The notes under the pieces are model-generated. The model ran no database searches, had not been told where the DNA came from, and saw only the letters and a list, made by a program, of their open reading frames with translations. Of a DNA stretch of 64,000 bases, positions 22,728 to 61,588 are shown in pieces. A program made the position numbers and the translations under genes. Position 1 is the first letter of the stretch; each line of letters begins with the position of its first letter. Source of the stretch: Lingula anatina (lineage: Eukaryota > Animalia > Brachiopoda); assembly GCA_051362555.1 (NCBI GenBank), contig CM120640.1:23670225-23734224 (forward strand). Direction: 5' to 3'.

Positions 22728-22821
22728 ATGAAGCCTAGCTTAGGGGACCAAGTTCTCATCTTCTTAGCAACATTATGCTTGGCCTCCTGTCGATTGTCAG
22801 AAGCGGACGATGGAAATTTAC
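22728..22821 (+). CDS. Lar: Lar leader exon A: signal peptide MKPSLGDQVLIFLATLCLASCRLSEA-DDGNL, splices in phase 1 to the Ig1 exon
   Basis: ACAATG start context; in-frame upstream TAA at 22704-22706; hydrophobic core VLIFLATLCLA; S-E-A cleavage motif; 31 codons + 1 nt then GTGAGT donor at 22822; C + AT (37918) gives His and continues in frame into EPSIIQ. Confidence 0.8.
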
Positions 22822-25800
22822 GTGAGTACACCTTTAATTTTTCATATTTTTCAAATGTGGTTTTGTGTTATTGAGAAATCTCCCGCTAGTCCTTAGCCAT
22901 CACTTTCAATGAAATCCCATTAGTGAAGTATTTGGACATTACACAAGCAGTGAGAAATCGTTTAACTGTCAAGTGAGTCTCATAGTGTAACATTACCTAG
23001 AATGCCTTCTGCCTTCTCCCTCATTGAAATACATGAGATTGACAGCTAAGTGCTAGTAGATCATGTGGTTTAATGTCAGGCCTGACACTGCTTTTATCCA
23101 TTTTATGATCAAATTGAATTCCTTGTTTGATTTGGTTACTGTTTAATCTGAGATTGTTTCAGGCCCTGAATATCGGTGGACATGAAAGCTTTTAGAATAG
23201 ATACAAATTACTTTCTTTCATGCAAGGTAATAATGAAATGCGGTGTCATTGTTCGATAATGCACACCTGTATTTGGAAAGGTGTAACTTGACATCAGACA
23301 TGTAAAGGATACCAAGAAATTCAATCAGAAATTAATCATTCGGGGGCAGTTGATTTTGGTTAATGAATAAGGCAAATAGTGGTATATATATGGTTCTATT
23401 TTTAATGGTTCACTGGGTAAAAGCACACCATCCTGACCCCTCTTCTGCTCTGATACTGAGCCTTTCTTGATACAGATGGCTAGGTGGTTAGGAGGAGGTT
23501 TCTCTCAGTCTGAGATTTATTATATGAAATAGTTACTTGTGATTTATATCTGTAAAAAAATTAATTTTTTTTTTCACATTTTGAGGGGAGGAGCGCAAGG
23601 GGTACACATGGATCAGTGAATTGTGAGGGGTTCACTAAGATCCAAAGTTACTTTTGATGTTTCTTTAAAATTTCGTACCAGAGTATCCAGGAAAAACCTT
23701 TGCCTTTTTAAAACCAGTTTTCATTGTGTCCCAGCACATTCTTTAAGCTGTGTAATTAATCCTGTTTTGGGAAATAAGATTTTTTTACTCTCCTTGCACT
23801 CCTCTGAATGCTAAGAGCATGTAATCTAATTGTTCACGATCCAGCACTGATCAGCTGTGTGATAAAGCACAGAAGAGCTTTTGCTCGAAACCCTGCTATC
23901 TATCCTCAAGGCCTGCCATTTGGGAAAACAGAAAAAATTGAACCTGGATTGGTGGATAAAAATTAACAGTTTCAACCTAAAAGAAAAAGAGATACTGAGC
24001 ACTCCCATGTCACCAAAATTCTAATTTCCTTAGAATGCAGAGTACTTCTGGTTCAAGAGGTTGTGCTTTTATACATTTAGCCTGAATGGTAGAGCACACA
24101 TAGGAATAAAATACACTAATATAGTACATACACAAGTTATTTATAAAATGGTACCATTTAATAACATGAACAAATGATTGAGAAGACAAAGCAGAAAAAC
24201 AGAAATAATGTTGCTACAATACACCCTTTTCTCATGACTGGAGTGCTGGGCTTGGCTTTTGCTTTCTTTGATCATGCAACTCTGCTTGACATTTATAGCT
24301 TAAGAGTAAAGCTAAATGCTATATTCATAATTCATTATTCACAATGATACCCAACCTCAAAGTCTGTACCAGAACAGTGCGTTTTAATGGCTGCTCTCTG
24401 GCCTGTCTACAATACATGATTGATATGTAGGAGCAAAAAAAAAAAAAAAAAAAGTCCATACACAGGAATCATACTCGAGTTTGACATGTTACTGGTGTGA
24501 TGTATTGGTTGACTATTGTGGCAATTCCTATGCCAGCAATATGTATTGAGTTGAATAATGGAGAGCAGCATAGAATGACTGATGGATTTCTGGAGTGTTC
24601 AGTACAGAAAAATATTAAAAGTAATGGCCACATCAGTATAAAGTCTTGTGTCTCCTTCCAGCATCATGGCTTAAAGAAATGTGTCCCCTGATCCTGCTGA
24701 CTTGTAATGGTCGAGTTTAGAGGGAAGAAATATGCATAATCAGCCTGACTGCCTGCTCACAGAAACAGGCAATTAGAGGAGCTCCTTGCTGTGTTAGGCA
24801 CTTCAAAACGTCCCTTAAGTCGATCAACTTGGCTATTTTAGCTATAAATTTGAGAAAAGACCCATGCAAGGTTACTCTACTATGCGGCACATGGCGACAA
24901 AGTTAACTTTCCTGTTATTGATCTCCAAAAGGGAGACTGCAAGCCGGTGTGTGTATATTGGTTGGGTTGGACTAACAAGTGTGGAAATTCAGGGCTAGGC
25001 TGGCTGATTGATTTTCATCTAATTACAATATATCCTATTAGACCCAGAGGCTCAAACTTTCAGTTTTCATTAATTATTCAGGTAGAAAAGTTTGTGATAC
25101 TTTAGTCCAAAGTTGATACTAATGTCCCTGACAGGCAGATAATTGTAAAAAGAATGGAAATACGCTGAATGATCGAGTAGAATTCCCATTTCCAGCACTG
25201 ATTTTAAGACTAAACAACTGGGTACATTTGAGTGCAGATACTGATCACTCAGGCTGAAAAAGATGCCAGTTTTTGTTTGTTTTTGCTGAAAACAATTGGC
25301 ACACTAGAAGATACCATTTCTAAACAAAATAGAAGACCAGAGTCTTCAGGAAGTAAGACCAATCCCAATCCAAATCCAGAGGCAGTAATTTTGAGTTCTT
25401 TGATTATCTGGCCAACACACCTGTGCAGTGGTGCTGGTAGTTTGATATTGGAAATGGGTTTTAAGGTCCAAGTTTAGTGTAATTATTGGTGGAAGAGATC
25501 TAGAAAACTTCAGAACCTTTCAGACCATGTACCTGTATTCTGCATTTAAAACAGCATGGTTGTTTTGAATTAGGAATGGAAGTTCTGTGATACATTTCAA
25601 CATTAATGTACCAAAGGTCTGCATGGAACAGTGCAGAGAGATGGCAAAAGCATATTCTGTTATGATAGCTGCATATGACATGTGGAAAGGCAACTGCTGT
25701 CTGAAATGGATAGGGATTCAATATTTAGACTGTTTTCAGCCATTGCTTTAAATATAATTGGCAGAATTGGCTTGGAGAACACTTCTGTTTAGACAGCAGG

Positions 25801-29896: not shown

Positions 29897-29898
<2 letters not shown>

Positions 29899-29978
<80 letters not shown>
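29899..29978. repeat. (TA)40 microsatellite
   Basis: Uninterrupted TA run; it explains the YIYI ORFs at 29877 and 29882. Confidence 0.98.
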
Positions 29979-29983
<5 letters not shown>

Positions 29984-32900
29984 CCAATTGCTGAACCAGA
30001 TCTCGTTAACCTTTGTTTTGCATTCAGCACCAACATTACACCCTATGATACCCGCAAAGGTGACTTATGGGGATAGAGCTTGATATATCAGTTATCTACC
30101 TGACATGATGCACATTATTAGAGGAAATGGCAGAAGCTTGTGCAAAGGCTTAAGCTGCATCAAGGTGGGGCCCCAAGGTCTACATCCCACATGGGGCTTT
30201 AAGTCTTACATATGATAAATTCAATGATTTTAGAAGGATTTCAGTCCTGATTCAACACTTGAGGTATAAAGTGTCCAATAAAATACTGCCATAAAACAGC
30301 AATATTATTTCACTAGAGCTTTATTCATATTCAAGAAGTAATCCTACCCTTCAAACAATAACTTAATCAGTTCAAAGGGAGGGACTTATGTGAATATTAA
30401 TATGATAGAGTATGTTTTCTGAACAAAAAAAAATGTGCCTGGGTGATTTTTATGATGACCTGTAAGAACCTCCAGATATAAGATGATGTTATTTGCACAA
30501 GTAATAGAAGTCTTGGTCATATTAATACATTGTCAAGAACAGCATCCGTTGTGTATCGCCAAAAATTGACAATAAAAGTAAGAAAAAAAACATAATATAG
30601 TGACTTTAAACTACTGTGTATCTTAATTGAGATATATCATGAAGGCATGTCAGAATTGCATTGGTTTCATGTACAGCAACCCAGTGGTGTCCTTACTGCC
30701 TGGTACACAGCATGTTCTTAATTCACACTTTACCCTGGCAATTTGTACCTGACAGAATATAATATCCTGCTATCTGTGCTGACGGAATGATATTGCCAGG
30801 TATGAATTATATGACTAATACTGCTTTGTTGGTGTAACAGTTGGAAGTCATGCATGCATACAGCAATGTTGTAAATTACAATAAAGCATGCTAAATGTAA
30901 CACACAAGTAGTTGTTTAAAGGTTCATTTTCTAGTGTCCATCAAGTGAGCATACAAATGGTTGTCATGATGGTCAGAATCTAATTTAGTTCTGAAACGTG
31001 TCCAAGACTGAACCTTTATTAACAGCAGAGGGGACATAATTTTTTTTTCACATTCTGTTGTCTTCATAAAACATAGACAGGAAGTCCCCTTGAAGCAGCT
31101 TAGTTTATTTGATAGTCACCTTGCCTTTGATGTTTTTACCTCTCACCTGAACCAGGGCAGAAGTCAAGTTATTGGATAGTAAAAGTAGCCTTGCGGCAGT
31201 GTTGTCCCCTCACACCTCTAACAAGAATAAAGTGTATGTTAGAGCTAATTATTTGTATGTAGTTCTCTTGTGCATACTGCTGGGACCCTTGAACTAATTA
31301 GGCCATTGATTCTGGTGTAATACTACAGTGAAGGCTTTACTCTTGATGTAGTCGTGCAATTTTTTATTTATGGCTTTTGAGCATGCCACGATTCCAGTAG
31401 TGTCTTCCTGAAAAGGCTTAAAAATGATAGATGCTTTTGAAATAACTAGATTCCAATGTGTTGGACTTCCTTGTATAAAGTGAAGGTATAAATGTCTTTC
31501 TGAGGTAATATCTCTTACATGAAAACAAAATGTGGTTGAATGAACACAGCTGAACATGTGGCACCCGTATTCTTGTCAAATCCGAGGAAGATGATGTAAA
31601 TGATATCTTTTCTATCCTCAAGCTCAAATCTAGCTGGCGAATAAAAATTGGATTATTCATCTGTCAAATTGCTGCCATTTTCATGCATGGAGGTTATGGG
31701 GTCTGGGGTGATTGAATTAGCCTGGGATCAATACACCTCCTGGGATTTTCAGATGCATTCTTATAAAAAAAAGAAAGGAACATGTGCAAAGAATTGCAAC
31801 ATTTATTGAATTGTTTTAACGTAAAAGGCTATGTGGTTTGGGGAGGGGGGGGGGGGAGAGATAGAAGATGTGCTTTAACTTGCATGGTGTTAAGTACGGA
31901 TAATGGTCCATGGAGAAAAAAAGAGATCAGTAAGCTTTGAAAATTGATCAAGAAAAAAAAATGAACCTGAAGATGGATGGGATGAATAGCAAGTTTGGAT
32001 ATTTTAGGAGGGGAGGGGGAGGGGGGAAAAAATTAAATTGTTACTTTTCCCATTAGACCTGGCATCCTTCACTGAAAACCTTACAAAGAGACTTATTATG
32101 TTTTAAGCATAGCATATTACATGAAATGTATGCCTGTGTTCCTTCTGTGGTTTTTGGATCATTGAACTTTTCCACACACAAGATACTTCTTTGAATTCTG
32201 TCCCTTAATTTGGTTTGTGAGTGCTCATAAAATACAATTGAATTAGTGTTACATATTGAGTATCACAAGGCACCATAAAACAACAGCGAAAAAAATCCGG
32301 AAAGTGCTGGATTGATTGATCTGCCCTTGCCCCCTATAATTGGGATCCAGTCTTTGTAAAGTCTATCTGCTTTTATATCATCAATTGCTGATCAATGAGG
32401 TGTTGAGGTAGTAGCCTATAAAGAGAATATTGCTGTTATCACAGCTCAGTGCTTTCCAATACTGTAATGTTAGTATTGGAATAGTTTGGGTCAGGGTATA
32501 GTATGACTTGTTTGATGTGGTATTTTCCACATGCATACCACAAACAACAGTTTGAAAAACTTGACTGGAGACAGTTTTTGTTTGTTGGACAACCTTCTGT
32601 GACAATTGAATGAATGTGCCATTCCGTTATGTGCATGATCAAAATCAACCGCAGAATGCAGATACAGTTACTTCTTATACTTACAGCATTCATCAAAGAA
32701 AGAATTGGTTTTTGGGATGATTATTACTCCGTTCTGGGGGTCGTGAACACCATCACTCCCCAATAATTATGTGCACCTAAAGTGGTGTCAAATATAAAGT
32801 CCAGGGATGGTTTAAAGTTCATCATTTACATATATGTTTGTAATTCCAGACATAAACTAGCCAACCATATCAGTTTATTTTTATAGTTTATTTAGCTTAG

Positions 32901-35900
32901 CCAGATAAACCAGGGTTTCATTTGTTTTGACCTAAGTAATAAGAGAAGAGGCTAGTAGTCTAACCCTACCCACTTCACATTATATACATATTGTCAACAG
33001 ATATCCTATAACTATGTATTTTTACAGAAAGCATACAATAGTATATTTTTCCATCAGATTTCTATGAAGAATATGCCCTTTGTTGTCTGATGTGATTGCA
33101 ACTAGAAGCTCTGTGCCACAGGGGGGTTGTGTATGCAGAAGCCAGATGTGTTGACCACTTTTCTTTTTCATTTCAAGAAAATGCCATTTGTTCCAAAACT
33201 AAATGAAATTGTTAACATTGTTATCCTAGCCAAGGCACGTATGTCAGTCTCCCACATCAGTACCATGTTGCCTGTAATTGGAGTGGAAAGGGGAAACAGT
33301 TTTTCGATCTGTTGTTGAAACAGTAACATAAGTTTTTTTATCTATTCAGGGCTTAACATAGTGTCCAATATCATGGGATTTTGTATGCTCAAAATTCATA
33401 CTAAATCTACTCTTTGGAAGCCGAACTAACAGTACCAAATTGAAATAAAAGATAAATTTTCACACAAAAACTAGCAAACCAAAAAAAAAAAAAAATTATA
33501 TTGCAATATGTTGCATATAGTGCATTTTTTATCAAAAAGCTTGGCGAGACAGATGTTAGTGGAATTGAACATTAGCCCGGAGGATAAAAAGAAACGAGAG
33601 TGAAAAATCAACATTTATCACCATTTACCACTCATGAAATCAAATCAATGATACATATTGTTCTCTATATGTACACACTTCAAAGTATTACCACATTTCT
33701 TCTGTTACCTTACAACAGTAGTACTAGCATAGTCTGTAGAACTAAGTAGATTCTTAGTAACACCTTCTGTTCTTTTTAATAGTGCTTGTCTTTGCTAGTC
33801 AATATGTTTATAAAGCTCTTCGACAGATGGTTGGAGGTGATATATGCACTTGGAAAACAAGCTCTTATGGATTATATTTGTTTAGAATGGTAGTGGATTT
33901 CTGGTGTAGTTAAAATGGGATGTGGGCCCCAGTCTTACAAGTGATTTCAAGGGGGATAATTGATTAAAAAATTGATGGGAGAAATATGCACTAGAAGCCC
34001 TCATTGTTCATACACATGCGTAAACTAACGATATTAAAAATACCAACCAAATATCAGTACCTAGTATCTTTTGGGAAAACATTTTGTATATAGTTTGTTG
34101 AGCACTGTGCTGCAACATCTGCCGCAACTGAGTAGGTTCTGAGAAGTACTTGGTACGAGACTTAGTCAGCGAAGCCTGTGGTAGAAACCCTCTTCACAGA
34201 CAAAGACAGGACTCCCAAGAGGGGATACTTGTCCCACTGAAATTGAAATGATAGTGATGACTTTCATTAAAAATAAGCAATAATAACTCGGTTCATATTG
34301 TTAATGAACTGAATCACCCGGATAGCCATGGGTCACATGTTATGTGGAACATTGTGCAACTAACATATGGGTCTGAGTGAAAATGACCTTATCAATAGAG
34401 CCGTGGTTAATTAATCCCTTGTCAGCAATACTGAATGCTGCAAAGTCACCAGAGAAATCATAGGATTCAACAAAGCGAGGAGAAAAATAAGTTTGTAATT
34501 TGAGCATAGGGGATAGGTTGACTTTTTGTTGGTTTGCAAAAAAAAAAGTAATATCTTGATTAGGTATGAATTTTGCTATCGATCGTGCACGGGTTTCTAT
34601 CAGTAAATGAGCAAGGGATAGTGTGATACTGTGGCATTGAGCACACTTAAAGCGCTGCGCCACTCAACTTATCTTTGACATGATGAATTAGACCTTTAAT
34701 AATACCTACATAGATTTATAATACTGTGCCAGTGGGACATTTTTTTATGATTGAAAGAAAATAAATTTTTCCTTCACCCACCCATAAGTATATTTTTTAC
34801 CTTTTATCCAAACGAGTGTCTTTCTACTTCAATTGGTTACTCATCAATTTCCAAAAAGTAATATCAGGGTAAGCAATTGGTTGAGGAATATATCTTTTGT
34901 AGTTTCACATCTGAAATCAAACACAACATCTTTTCCACTCTTTGCCTCTAATATTCAGGACATCCTTTTGATTGGAAGCCAAAAACATATCAGCCACCGA
35001 ACATCTGTGCATTGAGACTTTCACTTACTTTTTTGCAAAGATCATTTTTGCAATTGGTAGCAAAATTAATTTTGTATGTAATAGTGCTAGTCACAGGTCT
35101 TTCTCAGTGGGCATGTTCTAGGTATATACATATTGGGAGTTCATGACAAAAATTGACTTTGTCTCTTGCTCGTGAGCGAGTCTTTATCATTTGCGACTTC
35201 CTGCTGGAAACTTAATCAGTCTGAAAGATGATCATCACATCGCAATTGGCATATTGCATGCAAGCAGTAATGTGTATTAGATGTTGATGCCAGCAGTAAA
35301 CCCCTCAAACACTAGAAATAGTTGTTGAGAGGAAAAATTCATTCATTCATTAGGTGCATTTAAATGTTAAAGATAATGTTTGTTTTTGAATCATGCTGTG
35401 GAGAAAATACAAGGTAATGAAGATGTGTCAGTTTTGCTGCCAGACTAGGTTTTAGATAAAATACCTTATAAATCAAAACACTCCCCCTTATATTTCAACT
35501 GTCTGGGTTTAAAATTGAAAAGAGTTTGTTATTTGTCATTTTCCATTCAGGGAGGGTTTTATTGTCCTTTGTTTGTGGGAGAATTTCTCAAACAAAGCCA
35601 TTCTGTACAACCCGGGAGGGCGGGCCTGGAGGATAGACAGCACACTGGGTAAATTTGAACAGACTCAGCCAATTAATATTGCAATAGTCTCTGCTGTGGG
35701 AAATCCTGTATAATACATAATTGAATTATTTTCTTCATAATGCACTAACAATAGAAACTGCCTGGTCTGCATTTGAACTGCTCTTCAAGATGATATAACA
35801 TTTGCTTGAGAAGAAGGCTTTTGTTTTTCCAAAGACATCTGAAATGTCAAAGGATGGTTTATACTGCTTACGGTTTTTGTTAAATCTGACGTGAAGGAGG

Positions 35901-37220
35901 CACCTTAAAGAATGCTTTTTCCATGGATCAATTGAAGTTTTTTCATAGTGCATAAAAAAAGCATTCAGTTAAATTTAATCTTGTAAATCTGTAGAGTATT
36001 GTTGCAGTTTTTTTTTTAAATGATATCAGGATTTACTTCAGAAATAAACAGAGGATCGGTGCCAACTTGGAAAAACCAATGAATGCATGATGTGTGTCAC
36101 TTGAGAGAATGAGGGATCTTATGTGGGTGTGTGATCTGCATTCTTAACAACATTGCATTCAATCAATCTAACTTTTCATTGCTTTCATCTTAGACTTTGC
36201 ACATATACTACTAATGTATCTTGGGCATTTTTCAGAGTATCCCTTATAGGCATTGCTGACAACTTGCTAAAGTGTGTGTGTGGTTTTATAAAGATTCTTG
36301 CAGACTTGTGCCTCCCAACATAACAACAGAACATCCCAGCTCTGCTCCTCACTAGATGCTTGGGATGTTCTATTGTTGTATCTTGGCTGAACTTGGCATG
36401 ACAGACTGCAAATTGAATTAAACTATTTCTCACTTAGCACTAACTAACCAAATACATTGCATTAATTACGCACAGGTGCAAATACCTCTACCCTGGAGTT
36501 CCGATTTGTCAACTATGTAACACGTAAGTAGCAGGTAGATGCATGGTGCTTGAGCAGGTATGACCAGTTACACCACAAAGGCAAAAAGAATTTCATAATT
36601 AGAACAAAGTAAACTTCTCCCACTTCAAAGTCAACTACCTCTTACATAGGCATACATGTATGTGCAGATATGTGGTTCTGCAGCTAGCAACTCGCAATAT
36701 TTTTGCAGAATTATAAGGAAAAAGTAATAAATACTGCCAGAAACAAAGGTAGGATCCATTTTCCTACATATGAAGTCCATTTTTCTGAAATATTCTAGCT
36801 TTGGGTTTTGCTAAGTTAGTTAAGCCTTTACGTCATACAGTCTGATTTGCAGACAAACAAAACTGTTGGAGTGATATGTAATTTTATCAGGAAAACTTGG
36901 CACAATAAAACGTACCAGTTGCCTAGGATTTACTCATTAGGTGGTTATTCTAAAGCAGTGGTTACCACAACAGGACTGCAAAATAAAGAGAACCTTTTTA
37001 GTTAGCACCTTCAAAGGATCATGTCGTCTCACTTTTCACTTCAAATTGGTAAAAGTTGGGTGGGAGACCCCTGTACCTCTTCTCACACAACGATAATGAG
37101 TTCAGGATGTGTTTGAAGTCTGCTAGGCATGCTTAAAAAACTCATTTCTACAAAAGAATTGAAATCAGATCTGTTGTTTTAATACCCAGGTCAAAACGTC
37201 CAGCATCTTTAATATGCAAG

Positions 37221-37258
37221 TTTTTTTCCTTTTGCATTTCCATCTGTGTTAGGTAAGT
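37221..37258 (+). other. Recursive-splice-like site
   Basis: tttttttccttttgcatttccatctgtgttAG|GTAAGT: 30-nt AG-free pyrimidine tract followed by a consensus donor. Confidence 0.35.
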
Positions 37259-37917
37259 TCTTGAAAGCCAGACTGAAAAAATGAACATTTAAAGCTGGCA
37301 TGTACGAGTTAAACAAATTTGGAGCTCACTTTAAATGTTCTCAGCATAAAACCTAGGTTATTAACATATTTGCAACACACACCATGCGGAAAATATTTTT
37401 TTGCCTTTGTGATGTAGTTGGCATACACTACTAACAGCACTGTGTGATAAAAGATCATGTCAAAGAAAAGATAAAGATGTATTAACTTTCAATACAATCA
37501 AAGTCAATGTTGAAGATTTTTGTTTAGTTCTGAAGTTGCCACAAGAAACTGTTGCCTGTTATGCAATGAAAGAAAGCATTTCTTAGAGAGGTGTTGTCTG
37601 TTCTGCAAAGTCACAATGGTGGCAGCGGTGGGATCAATCTCAAATACAACTTTGCAGTCGTAGATAAACCCTAAGTCTAACATTTATGGCAGCAGTTTTT
37701 TGTGGCAGTTTTTGAAACTTGGCAAAAATCATCTGCCGTGATTTTGTTGTGTTTAAAGTGATGTGAAGTTTGACATGATTCTTTTTGCTTTGTTTCCCCC
37801 TTCTGGTTTGGACTGTTAGTGCTTTTATTACCTTTGCCCTCTTAACTTCTATAACTAGGGTGGGGGTAAAGACATCAAAGAAAGATGAATAATTTTCCAT
37901 TCTTACTCTTTTTTCAG

Positions 37918-38217
37918 ATGAACCCTCAATAATCCAATCTCCACAAAGCAAGAAGGCTCCAAATGGAGGTATTGTGAGCTTCTTCTGCAAGGCAAGTGGG
38001 AACCCCGCACCAGATATAAAATGGCAGAAAAATGGAAACGATTTGGGTACCTCAAAGCAACGCTACCTGGTGTTTGATATGCCATTTGGGTCCGTCTTGA
38101 GGATAGAGCCAGTGAGACAGAGAAGAGATGATGCTATGTTCACATGCACGGCCACCAATGGGGTGGGAGAGGCAGCCTCTGCTCAAGCACAGTTGACGGT
38201 ATATCCCAATGATATGG
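37918..38217 (+). CDS. Lar: Lar exon: Ig-like domain 1 (EPSIIQSPQ...SFFCKASGNPAPDIKWQKNG...SVLRIEPVRQRRDDAMFTCTATNGVGE...LTVYP)
   Basis: ttcttactcttttttcag acceptor, G|GTATGT donor, 300 nt, phase 1-1; I-set Ig Cys/Trp pattern and LAR-typical SFxCxAxGxPxP and SVLRIEP motifs. Confidence 0.95.
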
Positions 38218-38997
38218 GTATGTCATTCAATTATTAGATGTCAAGATTAAAAAGCTGATGGTGCTAATTTGTACTTTATTGCTACTCATTCATTTCCTAT
38301 GTGGTTGTCAATTTCCCATGATAAGATATCGGGATTGGTATTAGATATCTGATGGCGTGAGTGAATTAGCAGGCAAAAAGCATGATCTGCCACTGAAATG
38401 GTCCTATATCACATAAAGCCACAGTCCACAGTAAAGTTCCCAATTAAGACATCATATTCGTATGGCAAGCTGAATATCAGCCTGTCTAAGTGCCAAAAGT
38501 TCAGAGATCTGTAGCATTTTCAAAAGAAAGTTTTTCTAGTTCCATCTTTTTGCCCAAGGCATAACAGCTGTCATAGTAAGTGATGTTGACATCTGGGAAG
38601 AAAGTTTCTTCTGTCTGTTCTGTTTGCTTATCATATCTTCAGTGGGGAAACACGTCCATTCCTTTACTTTCTTTATTTCAGCATCATGCCCGCTATTCAG
38701 TCCTTTTGCTCTACTGTCAGTACTACTAAACAAGAGGAAGAGCAATAACATATTATATTAAGATGTAAGCTTTTCAAACAGACACAGAGTGTGTGTAAAT
38801 TGATAGAAGTACGAGAATAAGTTGATATTTCCTCTGCTGCATCTATTCATCATTCATCATCCCGTGCATTGTGGATTCGTTTCCTGTCATTTGTGCCGAG
38901 GATAGATAGATAAAGTTAATCTTTTATCTCTATATTGGCCAGCCAGTTCATTGGCGTGTGGAGGACATGTCACCTTTCAAATTTCATTATTAAAATC

Positions 38998-39061
38998 ATG
39001 TTGAAATACTGCATCACATATTTGCTTTATTTTATTATGTCATCCTACAACTGCTCTATTG
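38998..39061 (+). CDS. Lar: Candidate Lar alternative leader exon B: signal-peptide-like MLKYCITYLLYFIMSSYNCSI, phase 1 to the Ig2 exon
   Basis: AAAATCATG start; basic residue then hydrophobic core then small polar residues; 21 codons + G, then strong TTG|GTAAGC donor; in frame with the Ig2 exon (G+AG = Glu). Caveat: T-rich DNA readily encodes hydrophobic peptides. Confidence 0.5.
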
Positions 39062-43433: not shown

Positions 43434-43519
43434 AACTTTAGGTATATTTTTGTTTGGTCCCTGATTCTAGATCTCGCCTTATATGTAAATATTCATTTTT
43501 TTTGCCTTTGACATTGTAG

Positions 43520-43696
43520 AGATGCCACGCACAGCTCCAAAAATTGTAGTCCAACCCAACCTGAAGTCTGTAGAGAAGGACCGGCCTGCCAGTATGCAGT
43601 GTGCAACAGAGGGGACTCCCCCACCTAGGATATACTGGCTTAAGGACTATATACCAGTGGATATATCAGACCCTAGGATAACTGTCTCTGAATCTG
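43520..43696 (+). CDS. Lar: Lar exon: Ig2 N-terminal part (EMPRTAPKIVVQPNLKSVEKDRPASMQCATEGTPPPRIYWLKDYIPVDISDPRITVSES)
   Basis: ttgtag acceptor after a T-rich tract, G|GTAACA donor, 177 nt, phase 1-1; resembles LAR PxLKxVE and WxKDxxPVD motifs. Confidence 0.93.
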
Positions 43697-44065
43697 GTAA
43701 CATATTGCTATGTGGTGTTGTATATTCTGTAACCACCGACTGGAAGAAAAAAGTTAATTCATTCATCTGACTGCAGTGTGATTTAATCCATGTCTGCAGC
43801 AGTGTAGTTTTAGTTAGCCAGAGATGACTGTATTGAATAAAACATTTAAATGTGCAAATGATTGATTGCATTATGTCATACACTAATATGTTTAATAAGA
43901 AATTCCAAATGGTATTTTGCATTGATTCACTTTCAAACCAATGTGCACATTTTATATCAAGTAGCATTATGAACAAAACCATTAGAACCTTGTGAATGTA
44001 GTGATAGATAACTGATTTCCTGAGGCTTTCTGACTGACAGTAATGGTCTGTGGTTGATATTGCAG

Positions 44066-44176
44066 GCACGCTCAATATTATGAACAGCCGAAAATCAGAT
44101 CAAGGGAAATATGAATGTGTTGCAGAGAATGAAGCTGGAGTGGCCTATTCCTATGCTGCCAATCTATATGTGAGAG
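44066..44176 (+). CDS. Lar: Lar exon: Ig2 C-terminal part ([37 protein letters not shown])
   Basis: ttgcag acceptor, G|GTAAGC donor, 111 nt, phase 1-1; [10 protein letters not shown] and ANLYVR are hallmark LAR-RPTP motifs. Confidence 0.96.
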
Positions 44177-47100
44177 GTAAGCCCTGTGCTGAGAACCATT
44201 GTGCTTTGCTCTGTTGTTGTCCTCTCCTTTCAAACAAAACATCTTAAAAGCATCAACTTCCACTTTTGATAAAACAAATAAACATACCATTGTACTACTA
44301 CAGGGGAAAATGGGAAATAAATTCAAAAATACAGGAACATGAAAACTGAAAGAGCACTCCCAGATCAATTAATGGAACTTGAAGAAAAGAATAGACAGGT
44401 GCGAGCGGCAGACAGTCTCTAGATAGCTCAAGTGATTGTCAGATAACTGAGCACTAGTTCGTCAATCATTTATGACTGTGTTTGCTTTGTAAGAATAACC
44501 TGCACTTGATCTTAGAACATTTATGCCTATTTGACTAGGTATTCCAATTGAACTGAAAAGTTCCAAATATATAAAAACTCTAATTTAATAAAGAAAAGAC
44601 ACAATTGAGAGAAACTGATATGACATATTTTCTTGCCCTGGGCTCAGATGTAGGTTAGCCAGAGTCATTCATTCTCTCTCTGCCTAAGGTGGCCTTTTTT
44701 TTAAGTGGTAAAATCATAAGACTTGACTATTGATTACTCCAAGTCTGTACCAACACAACACAAAGTGAGATGCAGTAATGGTTTCCAAATTTCTAACATC
44801 TCACTTATGCAAAATTTTAACACTTTCATTATGTATTTTTTTAACACACAAAAAGAAAAAAAACTGTAAGGCAAATGCAATGCATTTTTGAGAGCTTTCC
44901 AATCATCTTTTCCTGATATTGCTAACAAAACAGTTTCAGGAAAATCTAATCAGTTCTGTTTGAATTTAGTCATTAATTACCTTATATGTGTCAGGAATGC
45001 AGCCTTAGTAACATATGGCCTTCTGAAAGAGATCTGATTAGGTGTTAATATGATCAAATGTTTCTGAGTTGTAACGGAACTGTTATGTAGGATTCCATTT
45101 CCTTTGGCAACAGTTTTGTTCTTGGGCTCAGGATTCACTTTGTTCACTCCTTGTGTACACAATACTGGGATTAGGCTATGACTCATACTCTGGACCTGCT
45201 TGACAAAATTTGGTAATAGCATTCAAGGAAAAACAATCGAGATGGCTTCCAAACTGTAGCTGTCAGTGCTTACTTGATAAAAATTTAAAGATTACTCTGG
45301 ACAGATGAGAAAAGATTTTTCAAGATGAAGCAAACTGGCTTAATAAACATTAGTGAAGGGGTGAGAAATGAATTAATAGACTGTACTGTATTATTTGACT
45401 GATTTCTGCACAGTTCAAGCTGATCCTACAGCTCCGTATAATCGGTCATTTCGTTAGGAAAAGAACATCAAGAACTGTTATGTGCTGTTAGTGCAAAGTA
45501 ATAAAAGATGGGTCAATTATATCTCAACATCAGAATTGTTTTTTAGAATTCACCAATTGCCCTTTTTTCCCTGCAGTATGAAATTCTTAGAAACAGCAGA
45601 TTTAGAGCACAGGACTGGCAAAAATGCAGTTATGCTCTCAGTAAGTCTGTCCAATTTTAGCTATTTCATACAGTGATTCCTTGTCTGGTTTGGGGGTGTT
45701 TCAGCCTGCAGGTTTGTTTGAATATGATGAATTTGATAGCATCTAAAGCCACATTGATTTTTATCTACTGAAAAGAATGATCAATATGAATATGAACTGT
45801 TGCTTAAGGTTGATGAATTTACACCTTATTGTAAGTCTGATTAATGAAAGCTCTATAATTAGGTTGAGAAACAGACATTTATTGCCCCAAGAATAAATAT
45901 TTGTATGTAAAGAAGGATTTTAGAATGACATAAAAAGCATGATGATTTGGTGCATCAATATTCGTGACTGAAAAATGCTGAAATTCATTTCTTATTTGAT
46001 TGAAATCGTGATGACATAAAAGAAATTGTAATAGGAACACCTCACCTTAATTCCAATTAAAGGAAATTGAGTCCTCATTTAAATAATTGTAATTGCTTGA
46101 ATTGTTTAGATCACTAAGTCAACATCCACTGATAGATAAAAAGCTATTGATTTTGGTCTTAGATGTGTTTGTATTCACTGGGGTATACTCCGGACGTCAA
46201 GACTGGAAGGGAAGGCGGCCATTATTTGGCACTGCTGCCTTATGAGAATTATCACAACAGTAAAGATGATCAATAATCCAAATATTTACCTGCTCTTTGG
46301 AGAACTCTAAGTTCACAGACATTGACGGACATAAAAAAGGAACCTGACTGCAGGATGTAGTTTCAAAAGATTTTTTTCTTTAGACAGATATTAGCCATCT
46401 TTTTGCAGCCAAATGAATTCTTTTTACTTGTAAATTTTTTGTGCATAAGTTGTGTCTTAAGGATAAATGTATGAAAAGGATTTAAAGCTGGAAATTGTAT
46501 ATTGACATACTATTTCACTCTTGTTACAGCATGATTTGATTGTTCAAGTCAACAGCTGCATATCCCTATGTAATAATAATGTCTCAGTTTTGTCTTGCTG
46601 TGTCTGTAGGGGAATAGGATTACATTATCCATATTTCTCCACAGTAGGTTGTTACATAATGGAAAGTCGCATTGCATTCCACTTGAATAATCTTGATAGA
46701 TGACTAACTTTGCACATATATTACCATTTATTCTGCAGTGGGAGACTTCTGCTTGATTTATTGCAATATTTTTTCCACTTCATATTTTAAACATTACTCA
46801 AATGATTCGCTTCTGTTCACACAGCACATTGGTTAACTAAATGCCATTCCAGCCAGAACTTGTCTGGGGAAGCACCATAAATATCAATGATAATTTGATA
46901 TATTACAACCATTGTGTTCATAACTACCATATTTTAGATTTTGTGTGCATCTACTGTAGACCTTGAGACATTTCAATTTTTTTTTTCAATTCATTTCTTA
47001 AAGAAAATTCAAAATGCAACTAATTCTAAGATAGAGTAAGCTAAATTTATGTAGATTAATGGGTCACTTCAGCTCTGCATAGGGTCCCTTATCTTTGGCT

Positions 47101-50100
47101 TTGTGGTAATTCATATGCATCTTTTTTCCTATCCAGACTTCTTTATACTGTTGTGTGAAAAAGTGTTGTTATCATCCTTTTTCTGGCCTAGATTGAAAAC
47201 GAGTAGGGCCCCTGCATGAAATGGCATTTGCTGGGGTTCCCCACCAAGGACAGACTGATAAGAGGGGTATCAAAGAGGGCTACATTGTCTTATCCAAACA
47301 CTGAGCTAAAATCTGAAGGGATTGCTCACTGGGGAATTGATAAAGAAACTTGGACCAGCTCTTGCTTCCATGTTTGTGGCTGCTGATCAATAAACAGTTT
47401 GTGTTGAATGAAGCAGGACACGAATATCACTGATATGCCTTTGAAGATTAAAGTCAATAGGTTAATGTCTCGTACCAGCAGGCATATAGTGGAAGAATTA
47501 CACGAAACCAGACCAAGAAAAGAAGCCAGTGGAATTTCTTTTTTCCCCCTAACTTGGGCAATTAAATTGTTACTTTTGATCATTGTTCACTGCGGAGTGC
47601 GTACACTCCTTGAGTGGCCATCCTGCAGTGCAGCAATCTTTCAGTTGTGATACAGCTAGACTCCAGGGTTCAACTCTGACATTTTGGTTTTCATTTAGAT
47701 CTGAAGCACCATAGCTGAGCATCTTATCATGTGAGATTACTCTGATTCATTCTCATGCAAGAGGATCTCTAGAGCAAAGTCTTCACAGCCAGTGCTTTGA
47801 AAAATACACTAAGTTGGTTACTTAAAGGTTAGGCTAGATTACATGTGACCCATATCCCTTTTATAGCTTGTCACCTAAGTGCATTATCAAATTGTTGCAT
47901 TAGAAACTGATGGTATCGTGGGGTCTCTGTCAGAATTAAATAATCTATGAACCTTATTCTTAGGTCAGTTTCTCCTTGTATGCACCACTGGCTTCTTTCA
48001 AAAACTAAAGTAATGTATCCTTTAATGAGCAAAATTCATAAAACATTCAAATGGTTAACCTACAAAATGTGGACTCAAGGAACTTGATAAATATTGAAGC
48101 AGCAGTGAAGCAGGAAAATTTGTGGTTGGCAAGCAAGAACACACTTTAGGGTAGAGATAATGCAAACTTGCTGCTATCTTTCTTAGTAAGACACTTGTAA
48201 AGGTCAGGAGTCTGTAAGCTTCCAAGGAATTTTGAAAGATTTGATTCAAGGTGTTTCCTTTTAGGCTGCTCTGCATTGTGAATTATGTCCAGGTTTACCC
48301 CTACTGAATAACCTAATTGAATGAATTGAATGCTGCAACAGTTAATTTAAGTAAAGTTCAGTAAAAAAAGAATGTGAAATTACTACAAGGAAATGAAAAA
48401 AGAATCCAATTTCACTTAAAAGACACTTACACGCTGCCTGTGAAGCATTATGATGTGAATAAAGAGTTTGATTGATTTTTTTCTTTTGTGGGAAAGCTTT
48501 TTTGCCTTCTAAGAATGAAAAACCCTTCTTTAAGATGTATTTTACACTTAAAATGATCAATAAGTTTTTTTTTGCAGGGCACATTGATTGTAGCTTTAGG
48601 GGGAGAATAGATGTTTTGAATCTGGTCTAATTGCAGGCTGAACATCTGAGAAAATTCCATGACCTCTTCTACTTAAGATTCGACTCAAACCACTAGAATG
48701 GGGAGTTTTCCCAATCCCTCTGCTCATTATGTTACTGTGTTAATTGCTTAATGGAAACGGCCATTCAATTTACAGACATAGTCATGCTAATATTTCTACA
48801 AATATTGGCACTGCCCCAATATTTAGCTCAAACTGCAGAGCGGGTGGTTTTTCTTGGTTCTGCAGCATTAAATGTGAGCAATATATTGAAAAATAACAGC
48901 AATGGTAGCTTTTGCAGCAAAGAACAGCCTGCTCATGGTTCTGTGAGCGTGAGAGGAAAAAAGACAGTTGCATCTTGTCTAACTTTATAGAAGGAATAAA
49001 TAGCTTTGGCAAACATGCTGCTTATTGCTAATAATAGGTTATTCTATGTTGTGTAAGGGAGCTTTTGTAGAGCTCTCTGTCTGCCAGTTAACCTGTCTGC
49101 AAGAGATGTTGACATACAACAGGGAATTGAGCTGGTCATAGAATCAATAATATTGGAATAGCAGCAACCCATCTGTCAGGAACTTGCCTGGTGATGGGGA
49201 AGCAAACAGTGTGCAGGAATTTTCTGCTTGATGCTGTCTATTAACTGGATGTCAAAGAAGTTGTTTTATTAAAGAAAACAATTTAAAATATGAATTTCAC
49301 AGTAGGTGGGTTGAAATAATCCCATGTTTTTATATATTTTTTCATATAGTATAATGTAACAAAAAAAAAAAAAAAAGATTGAGACCCTCCCCTCCCTCCC
49401 CAAAAACCTATCCCCTTAAGCACACATACATACATGCATATACATTCTAGAATCCCTTAGTGTTATGCTATCCATGCTTAATATTTTCTTGTTTGATTAA
49501 GATTTTTTAAAACCCAGTTGAATTTTATTTATGTAATATTTTGTCTTTCTTGACTTTATGTTCACATTTAGCCAGAAAATCCCATTTCAAGAAAATTAAA
49601 TACAGGAAGCAACAAATCTTAAAGCATTCTACTGTTTCACCAAAGAGACATTTGATCCTGATCTGAATACAAGTTACTCAGTACGCTGACCCCAGCAAAT
49701 GGGGCCATATTTTTAGTTCAAAAAGTGTAAGACACCGGAATGAACAAATGTCTTTTCAATGCATATGATTTGATCATTCCAAGTCATTGATGTTGCAGCA
49801 AATAAGTGGCACTTCAGTTAATCAAGATATTGAAATAGAACCAGACTCCAGGTTCAGATGTGTGCTTTAAGATTAGCATAGAGGGATTACTGGTGCTACG
49901 GCCCATTGTACACAACTGCCTGTTGAGATTAACCATGTATGCCCAATATGAGCCCTTGGTGGTTTTGGAATCAGTAGAAATCATTCAACTGGCAATTTGT
50001 CTGTACTTAATGCAAAAGTTCCTGAGGGGAAGCAAGCTGGGCATAAACAAAATGATTTCAACAGAATTTTATGTACTTTGCACTGCCCTTGAACAAACAA

Positions 50101-50905
50101 ATAAGGAAAAAATTACTACATTAACGAATTGCAGTATTGCAATGATTTAATGGTGATAAATAATTTATCTGCAACTGTTAATCAGTAACACATTTTGTGT
50201 ATTATGCAAATTTAAGCAGTGGCAATAGTTGACTGCAGAGAGACAAAAATTACTATTATACCTTCAGTTCAGTGTAAACCAGTAGCAGACGCCATAATGT
50301 CCAATTTTGTAAAACAAATACCTACCCACATATTCCATGTTAATTTATGACCTGGGAGCGTACAATGTAGGATATTGAAAGGGTTCCAATCAATGTAGGA
50401 AAATGAAATAGAAATGGTTAATGAGACCCGTCATGCAATTCTTGGGGGAGGTAATAAGGGATGTCAGTTGATTATGGTTGCTATGATGTAAATTGCCAAA
50501 CATCTGGTTTTAGTTTTGTTACATGGAACAGTTCTTAAACTATGCCTTTGAATTGCTGCCCCCTCCACTATTTAGGAATTGCATATCCAATTATAGGTAT
50601 AGATATTTTGACTTGATATGACAGGGTTATGTTTCAATAAGAATGGATTTGTTTGTCTAATCATGAACAGTACAAAGTCAATCGGATTGTGACTGTTGAG
50701 ATTAACCTTCTCTACCACAATTAAATGGACCTGCTCTAGCACAACCATAAAAAAGCCTCACAATTGGATTCTAAATACATAGTCTATGTTAACGCATACT
50801 TGGTACATAGTCTTCATTATTTTATAATAATTGATGATTTCTCTCTTTTGATAATGATATCAATAAACAGCAAACTATATTTAGTCTTGTATTTTTCTAT
50901 TTCAG

Positions 50906-51178
50906 TACGTAATGTGGCTCCTCGTTTCTCCATCCAGCCCCCAGAAATGTTGGATGTGATGCCAGGAGGCGACATCAACATCACCTGTGTTGCTGTGGGT
51001 TCTCCAATGCCTGTCGTTAGGTGGAAGTTAGGTGTCACAGATCTAGCCCCAGTGGCTGATGCCCCCTTGGGAAAGAATGTTCTCATCCTGAAGGATGTTC
51101 AACAATCTGCAAATTATACTTGCTTTGCAGCTTCTGATTTGGGCAATATCGAAGCTATTACTCAGGTCAAGGTCAAAG
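50906..51178 (+). CDS. Lar: Lar exon: Ig3 ([13 protein letters not shown]...[23 protein letters not shown]...[25 protein letters not shown])
   Basis: ttttctatttcag acceptor, AAG|GTTGGT donor, 273 nt, phase 1-1; [12 protein letters not shown] and SANYTC are LAR Ig3 signatures. Confidence 0.96.
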
Positions 51179-52464
51179 GTTGGTGGACCAGTTTATTTAT
51201 CATGTTGACAGTCAATTGAAATTCTGTCTGTTAGAATTAATTGATATGATAAATTAGGTGTCTGTCTAGTAGATCTAGCCCTGCTTCATGCATGCACTTA
51301 GATAGGTAGATGGAGGCAGAGTTTTATGAATTTTCATAGATGTGCTTAAAGTGTATGCAAGTGGGAAAGAAAAAATGCGTTTAAGACATTATAATGTGAT
51401 TTTTAAATTAGCAGTGGTGTAATCAAAATGTTTGTGACTGTTTTAGCATGGTGTATAGAAGTGTCATATGTGTATTAGGCACTAGTGTGTGCTGCATGCA
51501 ACTTCCCCCAATTTTAAAAAAAAAACTACTATCAGTCTGCTTCAAGAAAAATGGCTCCACTTGAAGATCTTGCTTTACTGTCAAAACAATCTGTGTTGTG
51601 GGTTGTCTAAGAATAATATTGAGAGTAACTATAAATGCTTAATCCTCTATGTTTAATGCAGTCCACTGCATGTTTTCACTGCTCACTTCCTTTTGGGTTA
51701 TATCTGTTCAGAAATGAATTTAATACTGATAATAATTTTAATTGACATAATTTTTAATCTGCAAGCTTAATATGCTGATCATATTTTCTGTAACATTGGA
51801 CAAAAATATTTATAAGTATAACATAGTATCTTCCCAACAAAATAACAGTTAAATTGCATCTTAGCATATCATTATCATTGTCCTTTGTACAAGATTCACT
51901 AGATACCAGCCCATAATTAAATCTGTCATTCATTTGACGTCAATATTTTATGCACTGAGAAGCTATCTAGAAGCCATGATAAGTTCAGAGAAGAGACAGT
52001 GAAGAAACAATATTTACTCGTCCTTTTTCTGCAGAACTTCACAAATATTTTTCATCTTCATGTTATTTTTGCATTGAAAAAACTATTCCCTAGGTCTTTG
52101 CAATGGGGACCCATGCTTAACAAGGAATCCAGGTGACCATTAATATCACAGCACCATACAATTTTTTATTATGCACAGCAGCACTGTTTTTGTCCTCCTG
52201 TATCTGTCACAAACCTTTTATTTTAGTCCAGTGTATGAGGCAAAAATACACTGAAAAGTAACATCTTTAAATGTAGGGCGATAAGCTTGATACTAGTGGA
52301 AAAAAAATGGGAATATTAGTTTATGTGTACAATATATTTTTATGTATATGTGTACATTTTCAAATTGGATACAAACTCTATATTTGTTGTACATTTTTTA
52401 TGGGTTTTGTGGAGGACTAAAACAAATGAACATCACATTAAGTACACCCTTTTTTGCCTTTCAG

Positions 52465-52752
52465 CGCTTCCCAATCCTCCTGTTCACCTCGAGATATCCG
52501 AGGTCACAGCCACATCTGTTAAACTTAGTTGGGATGAAGGAAACAATGATCCCATAGACAGTTATATTATCAACTATAAGCCCAAGTATAAGCAAGGTGT
52601 GGAAAGCAAATCAATATCAGGCATTGTAGAAACTGAACACACTATTACTGGCCTGGTCTCTTATACCATCTATGAGTTCAGAGTAGTAGCAGTCAACAAT
52701 ATTGGGCGAGGGAGACCCAGTGAGCCAAAAGAGTGTACAACTGGGGAACAAC
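52465..52752 (+). CDS. Lar: Lar exon: fibronectin type III domain 1 (ALPNPP...EVTATSVKLSWD...YTIYEFRVVAVNNIGRGRPS...TTGEQ)
   Basis: ttttttgcctttcag acceptor, C|GTATGT donor, 288 nt, phase 1-1; FN3 Trp/Tyr pattern matching LAR FN1. Confidence 0.95.
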
Positions 52753-53320: not shown

Positions 53321-53421
53321 AGCCCAGTACACCTCCACGCAATGTCCGAGCCCGTCCATTAAGTACTAGCACACTATATGTCCAGTGGGATGAGCCAGAA
53401 ATACCCAATGGACTCATCTTG
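53321..53421 (+). CDS. Lar: Lar exon: FN2 N-terminal part ([34 protein letters not shown]); absent from the ORF track
   Basis: ttgatctcag acceptor, TTG|GTAAGT donor, 101 nt, phase 1-0; matches the LAR PRNVxARxLS...VQWxEPExPNG pattern. Confidence 0.95.
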
Positions 53422-53785: not shown

Positions 53786-53996
53786 GGATACCAGGTGTAC
53801 TACACCCTGAAAGAGGAAGGCGAGAACTTAGCCGAAAGACCTTATTACACATGGCAAAACATGGCAGTTACTGATAAGGTAGCCAATATTCGTAACCTGT
53901 CTCCAAACAGGACATATGTTGTCTGTGTCCTGGGAAGAACCAGCGTTGGCGATGGACCTCCGTCAGAGTATGTTGAAGTCCTAACAAGACAAGGAG
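53786..53996 (+). CDS. Lar: Lar exon: FN2 C-terminal part (GYQVYYT...NLSPNRTYVVCVLGRTSVGDGPPSEYVEVLTRQG)
   Basis: cacttccag acceptor, GAG|GTGAGT donor, 211 nt, phase 0-1; GYxVYYT, TSVGDGP and TxQG motifs of LAR FN2. Confidence 0.95.
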
Positions 53997-60024: not shown

Positions 60025-61303
60025 GTGAGCTTTGCTAAGTATCCTATAAAAAAAAGAGACATTCAGTTTTTAATTGACATTCATGGGTTTTCTCTCTGGG
60101 TGTGAGTTTTGATAGCTATCATGTGATTACAAACTTTTTTCGTTTAGTTCAAGTTTGCATGTCTGTTTGTAAGTTGTTTTGATTGCAGTTGCACCTTAGA
60201 GCTTTGGAAGTGTCTTGATTGTTATTCAACAATTATTTGAAGAGATTTCTCTCTCTTTTCATTCTACATCTTTTTCCTAAGAAACTTTTCTGCTTCTGTT
60301 CAGTGCCATTATTGAAGACTTGTATATTTGACGCAGGTCTTTCATTCTTCTATCTCCTATCCTCCTTTGACCATCCCCTCAGAAGAAGCACACTCCTTTT
60401 CGGAGCTGTTGCCTCGTATGTCAGATGTTTTGTGTGATCAATGGTAGTGTCACATTTGAATGGACATTTGAGTGCATTAGAGGAGGGACGCTTTGTTTGC
60501 AAAATTGGGTCAGAGCCTTGTATTGTGTGGTGTGTGAAGAAATGTTATAGAGTATGCTCATGCAGCACCGTCTAATTTTGTAATCCTGTAATGTTAGCAC
60601 AATTCACTTTGCCAGCATGTTAACTTGTATTGTCATTGGGGAGGATAGGTAAGGCAAAGTTTGGAGTGGAAATATATGGAGACTGCTGTGTGCTGTGAAG
60701 CAGAAATGTTTATAGTCATTGCTTTTACCTTGAAAAACAACCTTTTTTTGCTGAAGTTGAATGGTGGTCATGACTGACTCTTTGGTTGTAGAAACCCTGA
60801 TGTCATACATCATTGTATACTAATACATATTTACATATATTTGAAACACGAAAGCATACTCTTTACTTGTCATTTTTCAAAATGATGTACTTTGTGATTA
60901 TTTTGTCATTTATTTAAATTATGTTACCTTTTGAAAAAGATTGAATTGGTGGCTGATGTGTTTGCATAAAAAATAGAAATATCCAGACTGACTCATTTTT
61001 AAGGTTGATAATTTGATAGCTTCATCATAAAGGAAATTATATATCATTACTCTTCTCATTGCCCATAATCATCTAATCTGGCTCATCAGATTGTTATCTG
61101 GGATCAAAATTATGCAAACATCAACTGATCAAATATAATGACAACATTGTAACTCATATTATATTGAAATCATTTTTTCCACAAGATTTAGATACTTCTT
61201 AACACTTAAATAATTTTTAAAAAGTTTTATTGCACTTGAATTTTTTGTTCTGTCAATTTTTTAATTCTTGGAATTTATTTGAATTATTTTTCTTATATCA
61301 CAG

Positions 61304-61588
61304 TGCCAGAGCAACCTAGGAATTTACAGACCGAGGTACGAGGCCCAGACCAGATTTACGTTACCTGGGAAAAACCAGAGAATTCTGACGACATTATCAC
61401 AAGTTATGAGTTATATTACCAATCTCCATCAAGGGGGAAGGTCCGTGTGACCATCCAGCCCCCAGTGGAGAGTTACCTGTTGGAGGATCTAATCCCAGCC
61501 ACAGTATACAACATCCATGTCCTTGCTAAATCAGAGAGGGGGACAGGGCCTGAGAGCCCTGTAGTCCAAGCAACAACGCAGGAGTTCA
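61304..61588 (+). CDS. Lar: Lar exon: FN3 (VPEQPRNLQTEV...YVTWEKP...LEDLIPATVYNIHVLAKSERGTGP...TTQEF)
   Basis: tcttatatcacag acceptor, A|GTGAGT donor, 285 nt, phase 1-1; FN3 consensus following TRQG as in LAR proteins. Confidence 0.94.

Follow-up and report, generated by a model that had tools for sequence, protein, structure and literature searches.

The DNA analysed here, a 64-kb stretch referred to as the window, contains the 5′ half of the Lar gene of Lingula anatina. Assignment to the LAR (type IIa receptor tyrosine phosphatase) class was based on three Ig domains, 8-9 FN3 repeats, one membrane segment, and tandem phosphatase domains. Pfam returned three Ig domains, eight fn3 stretches (E ≤ 1e-5), and two Y_phosphatase domains, and the best PDB matches of Ig1 were PTPRD and Dlar. 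The exons in the window are identical to RefSeq XP_013388176.1. The gene had been correctly identified as LAR in a preliminary description of this DNA.

All features lie on the + strand. They begin with the signal-peptide exon of full-length Lar (L1, 22703..22821), an optional 48-nt mini-exon between the signal peptide and Ig1 (36476..36523; in four of five RefSeq isoforms, in frame and flanked by AG/GT), and the Ig1 exon (37918..38217; RefSeq match, covered by reads). These are followed by the two exons of Ig2 (43520..43696 and 44066..44176) and by RefSeq-matching exons for Ig3 (50906..51178), FN3 repeat 1 (52465..52752), FN3 repeat 2 (53321..53421 and 53786..53996), and FN3 repeat 3 (61304..61588). 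Two further segments are candidate leaders: L2 (38998..39061), most likely a chance ATG..GT segment, and L3 (59934..60024), which sits between FN3 repeats 2 and 3 in a 7.3-kb intron and is likely a signal-peptide leader missing from the annotation.

RNA reads came from four of the nine raw-read runs labelled with the same species (tissues unspecified), with 6-30% of each run read, and a junction was listed when three reads from two starts supported it. Ig1 was joined to the first Ig2 exon by 7, 7, 18, and 31 reads, the direct joint of the second Ig2 exon had 13, 18, 26, and 28 reads, and loose read ends at this second exon continued straight into Ig3. The splice path is Ig1>Ig2>Ig3. No insert of the meA or meB type was seen at Ig2 in the reads of the four runs, and three AG..GT candidates for such microexons in the Ig2-Ig3 intron were rejected with zero read support. 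The annotated variation of the ectodomain among RefSeq isoforms consists of the skipping of FN1 (in X3), FN4, FN9, and the 48-nt pre-Ig1 exon. Exon skipping was absent from the preliminary description.

L1 is used as the leader of the full-length receptor, as had been proposed. From its ATG at 22728 it encodes the first 31 residues of all five RefSeq isoforms, and its last 30 nt were found as loose ends ahead of 37918 in 4, 16, 28, and 37 reads. The junction 22821>37918 was present in 4/4 runs (85 reads). Because an acceptor is predicted 25 nt 5′ of the ATG (boundary 22703) and several RefSeq accessions have the X1 protein in common, L1 is probably not the first exon, and probably an internal one behind non-coding exons.

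Geometry and scoring of the three leader segments

Three leader exons had been described. The geometry of all three was confirmed. The ATGs at 22728, 38998, and 59934 each have A at -3, and the frames that they open, 94, 64, and 91 nt long, all end in phase 1 and run in frame onto the acceptors at 37918 (Ig1), 43520 (Ig2), and 61304. Such agreement of phase counts for little, as phase 1 predominates among the introns here and a donor picked at random fits in one case out of three. The frame of L3 does match the 61304 acceptor, but the exon that would be entered is the third FN3 repeat and not the first.

The support for the three leaders is unequal. Peptides were scored with a home-made classifier (not SignalP), for which 38 LAR-family signal peptides served as the reference (range 0.1-6.1). 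L1 (3.0) and L3 (2.8) fell within this range, whereas the likeness of L2 (-6.4) to a signal peptide did not exceed chance. The donors, all described earlier as strong, are TAC/GTGAGT in L1, TTG/GTAAGC in L2, and AAG/GTGAGC in L3. With a home-made matrix, which gave 1.0-7.5 bits for the annotated donors of Lar, only the near-consensus donor of L3 was strong (7.0 bits), that of L2 being moderate (3.5) and that of L1 weak (2.2). On the sense strand of the 64 kb only L1 and L3 reached the signal-peptide range, and no segment did so on the antisense strand. Hydrophobic ATG..GT segments at 24882, 33181, 39796, and 44778 were rejected as they lie under the reference range, yet they score above L2. 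No leader ahead of FN1, as found in molluscs, was scored within 51179-52464. Repeats were also considered as a source of the leaders and do not explain them.

L3 and a predicted Ig-less receptor

The reading that we prefer, with about even confidence, is that the gene gives rise to full-length Lar from L1 and likely to an Ig-less receptor from L3, L2 being a likely chance segment. A promoter inside the 7.3-kb intron would produce a transcript in which L3 is spliced onto FN3 repeat 3. The predicted product, of about 1510 aa, would be exported via the L3 peptide, with cleavage predicted by eye near VNS/QG. It would keep FN3 repeats 3-9, the membrane segment, and both phosphatase domains, and would drop Ig1-3 and FN1-2. 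In the sections of PMC4239663 consulted, the vertebrate ligand sites are assigned to Ig1 (proteoglycan), Ig1-3 (TrkC), and FN1-2 (NGL-3). With these sites lost, the short form would signal uncoupled from such ligands, like PTP-3B of Caenorhabditis elegans. The remaining variety of the ectodomain would come from splicing, by skipping of single FN3 repeats and by the optional, probably neural, glycosylated mini-exon.

That L3 is a real leader we consider somewhat more probable than the combined reading. By the same classifier it has the make-up of a PTP-3B-type leader, namely an ATG, a signal peptide, and an in-phase donor to an FN3 exon. L3 was rejected as a cassette read in frame, since a stop in that frame lies five codons upstream. 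The 400 nt 5′ of L3 contain seven ATGs, so the 5′ UTR must be short or spliced. Sequence statistics and existing precedents make an Ig-less receptor from this internal leader plausible.

The main alternative, less probable but serious, is that L1 is the sole genuine leader, with L2 and L3 arising by chance as ATG..GT segments of AT-rich introns, and that all variety is due to splicing. It agrees with the fact that 5/5 RefSeq isoforms open with L1 and with the absence of an L3 protein from these five isoforms and from the hits of two protein searches covering its length. Among 230 LAR-like proteins none has a leader entering at FN3 repeat 3, mollusc leaders entering at repeat 1. A search for LAR proteins led by FN3-3, limited to 512-1631 aa and crowded by unrelated FN3 proteins, gave none, and a search with the FN3-3 exon among 50% representatives returned mostly multi-FN3 repeats and carried no information. 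Moreover, a segment in the signal-peptide range with any usable donor arose in 47 of 150 simulated windows. Against this alternative stands the pairing in L3 of a mid-range peptide score with a near-top donor. Segments in the signal-peptide range occurred in 27, 14, and 1 of 150 simulated windows with donors of at least 2.2, 3.4, and 6.9 bits, respectively, where the strictest figure takes L3's own donor score as the threshold; a simpler filter gave 0/40. In addition, L3 is in sense orientation, the intron that holds it is large, and related phyla have internal leaders. RefSeq does model internal leaders in molluscs, yet L3 is unannotated.

It is improbable that L3 is real but spliced from non-coding exons shared with L1 instead of having its own promoter. 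L1 itself resembles an internal exon (acceptor 22703; several accessions sharing the X1 protein), and weak AG sites precede L3 at 59725, 59801, 59808, and 59915; however, the pyrimidine fractions at these sites are only 0.60-0.65, and such a splice must skip eight or more exons.

The preferred reading, with its own promoter for L3, has a close parallel in C. elegans ptp-3. The preliminary description correctly stated that this gene makes the Ig-less PTP-3B from an internal promoter. In the parts of PMC4418752 and bioRxiv 10.1101/2022.08.11.503694 consulted, ptp-3 is one LAR gene with independent promoters, its isoforms differ in the ectodomain, and PTP-3B, devoid of Ig domains, has its own function; three promoters with three ectodomains are already described there for this single locus (PMC4418752). 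PTP-3B keeps 5/9 FN3 repeats, whereas the L3 form would keep seven, and PTP-3B was shown genetically while the L3 form is predicted. Ig-less Lar isoforms are also present in RefSeq for Octopus bimaculoides (XP_052827295), O. sinensis (XP_029640735), and Pomacea canaliculata (XP_025110642), and these signal-peptide-led forms make up 3/230 LAR-like proteins. Each has its own hydrophobic leader joined to an FN3 exon, lacks Ig domains, and has both phosphatase domains. In contrast to L3, their entry point is FN3 repeat 1, with nine repeats retained, their leaders are not evidently similar to L3 by eye, and they are annotation models, not tested proteins. The entry point of L3 at repeat 3 thus differs from those of PTP-3B and of the molluscs. 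L3 would work in the manner of these leaders; this does not imply orthologous exons.

Alternative first exons with their own signal peptides reportedly also set the ectodomain of adhesion receptors in alpha/beta-neurexin, IgLON, and chelicerate sDscam, but these genes are unrelated and their promoters are mapped. If L3 is real, the brachiopod would be a third protostome lineage in which an internal leader yields an Ig-less LAR, and the domain boundary used would also be a third one. This would suggest that intronic signal-peptide exons were recruited repeatedly in a modular gene of phase-1 exons, uncoupling the phosphatase from N-terminal ligands. This would be a modest addition to a known principle, as promoter-chosen LAR ectodomains are already known.

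The proposed delta-Ig1 leader

A delta-Ig1 form would have been the unexpected finding, and the sections of the ptp-3 literature consulted describe none. The earlier interpretation stands for the LAR identity and the full-length leader, but its delta-Ig1 rung is unsupported. The peptide of L2 is rich in Tyr, Ile, and Cys, its core is weak, and it lacks a good cleavage site. It scores under 38/38 reference signal peptides and is beaten by 52% of random ATG..GT segments, and segments of its quality arise in 122/150 simulated windows. The junction 39061>43520 was unlisted in 4/4 runs, compared with 63 Ig1>Ig2 reads; in three runs, 0 reads stood against 56, which gives an upper bound of about 5%. 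Read depth over L2 was 0 in 3/4 runs and at the intron background in the fourth. This negative is softened because these four runs likewise failed to show the annotated 48-nt exon being included. L2 was also rejected as a cassette read in frame from Ig1, the AG sites at 38943 and 38947 being out of phase. L2 is likely a chance segment.

The full ladder, a set of three promoters for a full-length, a delta-Ig1, and an Ig-less receptor in which L2 is confined to a rare cell type or stage, is very unlikely. In its favour are the intact geometry and mid-range donor of L2, four reads of run X1 that cover 38955 (43 nt 5′ of the L2 ATG), nine database proteins that begin within Ig2 (e.g., Octopus X9), and the possible escape of neuron-restricted forms from runs that miss the mini-exon. 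Against it stand the weak peptide and absent reads of L2, a run X1 depth equalled in 5/27 intronic bins, a signal peptide in 0/9 of those proteins, and the V shape into which the LAR Ig domains fold for ligand binding (PMC8711739, in part), which makes removal of Ig1 alone an odd cut. We regard as equally remote the joint scheme of a true three-rung ladder whose neuron- or stage-restricted delta-Ig1 receptor lacks only the proteoglycan-binding domain, leaders invented repeatedly at LAR boundaries (in Lingula at Ig2 and FN3-3, in octopus and apple snail at FN1, in C. elegans at FN5), and an ancient glycosylated pre-Ig1 mini-exon common to lophotrochozoans and arthropods.

The optional mini-exon before Ig1

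The mini-exon (36476-36523), overlooked in the preliminary description, encodes 16 aa including an N-x-S/T sequon. It was skipped in the L1>Ig1 reads, with no inclusion joint listed in the four runs. Its acceptor has a pyrimidine fraction of 0.55, TGC at -18, and CTAAC at -36, and is the only one of ten with CTAAY within 60 nt; TGC by itself occurs at 4/10. The exon thereby carries the sequence signature of eMIC/SRRM4-type short neural exons, which the consulted part of PMC8797185 gives as a weak pyrimidine tract, UGC near the 3′ splice site, and a CUAAY branch point. The 3′ splice site is probably of the neural type. The insert was also considered as an extra beta-strand on Ig1; AlphaFold applied to the mini-exon with Ig1-2 (11 sequences) gave no strand, with low confidence for the insert (residues 1-5 and 7-12 under pLDDT 50), and the idea is unsupported.

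Short optional exons and FN3 number likewise tune the ectodomain of vertebrate LAR-RPTPs, but meA-meD lie in Ig2, the Ig2-3 linker, FN5, and near D1, whereas the Lingula exon precedes Ig1 (PMC8711739 and PMC4239663, in part). A discussion of the pre-Ig1 insert was not found in the literature searched, and the insert is already in RefSeq models. Counterparts occur in 15 other with/without pairs. A sequon-bearing optional insert of 13-19 residues stands directly before Ig1 in brachiopod, cephalopod, gastropod, scorpion, and insect LAR, and it may be the more durable finding at this locus.

Gene identity and the annotated leader

The gene is, judged by its sequence, a member of the LAR family, which Pfam and PDB matches confirmed. 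For the Ig2 exon, a single protein was 100% identical: Lar X2 of Lingula anatina (XP_013388176.1, 1999 aa), whose protein cluster has five members, the RefSeq isoforms X1-X5. The first 613 residues of this protein were reproduced by joining window exons, all on the + strand: the coding part of the L1 exon (22728-22821), Ig1 (37918-38217), Ig2 (two exons, 43520-43696 and 44066-44176), Ig3 (50906-51178), the FN3 repeats FN1 (52465-52752) and FN2 (two exons, 53321-53421 and 53786-53996), and the third repeat, FN3-3 (61304-61588). Single FN3 repeats are skipped in the RefSeq isoforms (FN1 in X3, FN9 in X4, FN4 in X5); skipping of FN1 and FN4 also occurs in molluscs, and that of FN4 in insects and sturgeons. 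No long coding frame was seen in 1-22700, which is probably intron that contains or follows non-coding first Lar exons. Positive GC skew extends over almost the entire window, and a (TA)42 microsatellite lies at 29899-29983.

The preliminary description had proposed a three-promoter ladder, in which leader segments L1 (22728-22821), L2 (38998-39061) and L3 (59934-60024) start a full-length, a delta-Ig1 and an Ig-less receptor. An ATG with A at -3, an open frame, a phase-1 GT donor and an in-frame join were present in all three, the acceptor exon for L3 being FN3-3. The phase agreement carries little information because most Lar introns here are phase 1. The annotation already contains one of the rungs; a second, of a kind known before, is likely; the third, novel one is at chance level without read support. 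The segments were scored with a small home-made classifier, distinct from SignalP and using hydropathy and donor tables, which was trained on 38 hand-picked, mutually non-independent N-termini of LAR relatives against 347 simulated ATG..GT segments. Chance rates came from 150 simulated 64-kb windows, and from 40 for a separate, cruder filter. The predicted signal-peptide character held for L1 (3.0) and L3 (2.8), the sole sense-strand candidates inside the reference range; L2 (-6.4) fell under all 38 references. The antisense strand of the window gave zero candidates in this range.

L1 starts 5/5 RefSeq isoforms. Four of the nine listed raw RNA runs (three studies, tissues unspecified, ~6-30% of each run read) were compared with 30200-44400, a splice joint being listed when at least 3 reads with 2 different starts supported it. 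Loose ends before Ig1 matched the final 30 nt of L1 in 4, 16, 28 and 37 reads, as expected from the joint 22821>37918. With the annotation, these reads show L1 in use as the leader of the full-length receptor. It is probably an internal exon, given a T-rich acceptor at 22703 (of a quality reached in 7% of random 40-nt windows) and at least four accessions encoding the same X1 protein, from which we infer that they differ in the 5' UTR. Runs X7 and X9 showed more exon differences from the window (37918-44176) than runs X1 and X4, which suggests that they come from a more distant population that carries this species name.

A candidate Ig-less entry point

We lean towards regarding L3 (59934-60024), a candidate from sequence, as a real leader. 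This is a rough judgement rather than a computed value, taken from a prior of ~1/4 (related taxa) and a chance of ~0.04 (relevant introns), and halved for its absence from annotation. Its donor (7.0 bits) is among the best of this gene, whose donors span 1.0-7.5. With the donor threshold set at 0.9, 2.2, 3.4 and 6.9, segments in the signal-peptide range arose in 47, 27, 14 and 1 of the 150 simulated windows; the last threshold, L3's own donor value, flatters it. Seven ATGs within 400 nt upstream count against it. The L3 protein (about 1510 aa) was absent from RefSeq and from two protein searches spanning that length, and no relative entering at FN3 repeat 3 was found among 230 LAR-like proteins, taken from lists of at most 15 members per cluster and many of them isoforms or close kin. 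Use of L3 as a coding cassette was rejected because of an in-frame stop five codons upstream.

From a putative promoter, L3 would yield a product without Ig1-3 and FN1-2 that retains FN3 repeats 3-9 together with the membrane segment and the two phosphatase domains. For vertebrate RPTPsigma, excerpts of PMC4239663 place the proteoglycan site on Ig1, report that the three Ig domains are needed for TrkC, and assign NGL-3 binding to FN1-2. If this map can be transferred by analogy to a brachiopod, the cut would strip the entire mapped N-terminal ligand block. According to parts of the published accounts, C. elegans ptp-3 produces three transcripts, each from its own promoter, with three ectodomains (PMC4418752), and PTP-3B, with five FN3 repeats, differs in role from PTP-3A (PMC4418752; bioRxiv 10.1101/2022.08.11.503694). 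RefSeq models from two Octopus species and Pomacea (P0144, P0145, P0166) are Ig-less Lar proteins with their own hydrophobic leader that enter at FN1. Promoter-chosen ectodomains are therefore already a known LAR feature, within which L3, if used, would be a new entry point. The sources also included excerpts of the Lingula genome paper (PMC4595640) and of a review (PMC10084454).

The delta-Ig1 candidate

The proposed delta-Ig1 form was not borne out, the sequence of L2 (38998-39061) being at chance level and without read support. Its joint, 39061>43520, was absent among the joints listed for the four runs, in which Ig1>Ig2 joints had 7, 7, 18 and 31 reads. Three runs had zero depth in the L2 bin; in run X1 the depth was 1.27, with 4 reads over 38955, and 5/27 intronic bins of that run were as deep. 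In the three clean runs, 0/56 reads set a ceiling of ~5% on L2 use. Inclusion of the optional 48-nt exon was likewise not listed in these four runs, though 4/5 RefSeq isoforms contain it; cell-type-restricted forms can thus escape, which weakens the negative result. A segment scoring no lower than L2, with an equally good donor, occurred in 122/150 simulated windows, the cruder filter found L2-like segments in 10/40, and four other sense-strand segments outscored L2. Nine of the 230 listed proteins start within Ig2, with a signal peptide in 0/9; these database models (P0150, P0062, P0123 and six others) probably either lack part of the 5' end or represent cytosolic read-outs. No description of a delta-Ig1 LAR was found in listings and abstracts of open-licence literature.

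The optional exon before Ig1

The 48-nt exon (36476-36523, + strand) encodes 16 residues between the signal peptide and Ig1, with an N-glycosylation sequon. Its neural-type acceptor combines a weak tract with UGC and CUAAY, as a passage of PMC8797185 describes for neural exons that depend on eMIC. In Table S2 of that source, 27 of the 62 matches were covered; they include three fly Lar exons, with lengths of 24, 291 and 9 nt, and none of 42 nt. We compared 16 hand-picked isoform pairs with and without the insert (Lingula, two Octopus, two Haliotis, Pomacea, a scorpion and nine insects, the Cotesia pair being two different species). All 16 inserts have 13-19 residues, N-x-S/T and an aromatic-rich stretch at the end. 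No such insert was found among the members listed for Gigantopelta, Littorina, Patella, Mya, Culicoides and vertebrates, so it may not be universal. AlphaFold gave no confident structure for the insert, and no publication on it was found in the literature searched; RefSeq models already include it, and splicing databases may well do so too.

The vertebrate mini-exons meA-D occupy other positions than this exon, as described in excerpts of PMC8711739. By the same source, introns 43696-44066 and 44176-50906 occupy the meA and meB positions; reads joined their flanking exons directly in 4/4 runs. Three AG..GT candidates, at 48187, 48928 and 49038, were without read support. In Ig1 (37918-38217), the arginine patch is retained, and the basic loop after the tryptophan is K-N-G-N-D-L in Lingula, K-N-G-K-K-V in Dlar and K-K-G-K-K-V in PTPRD; judged by these residues, the Lingula domain may bind proteoglycans less strongly.
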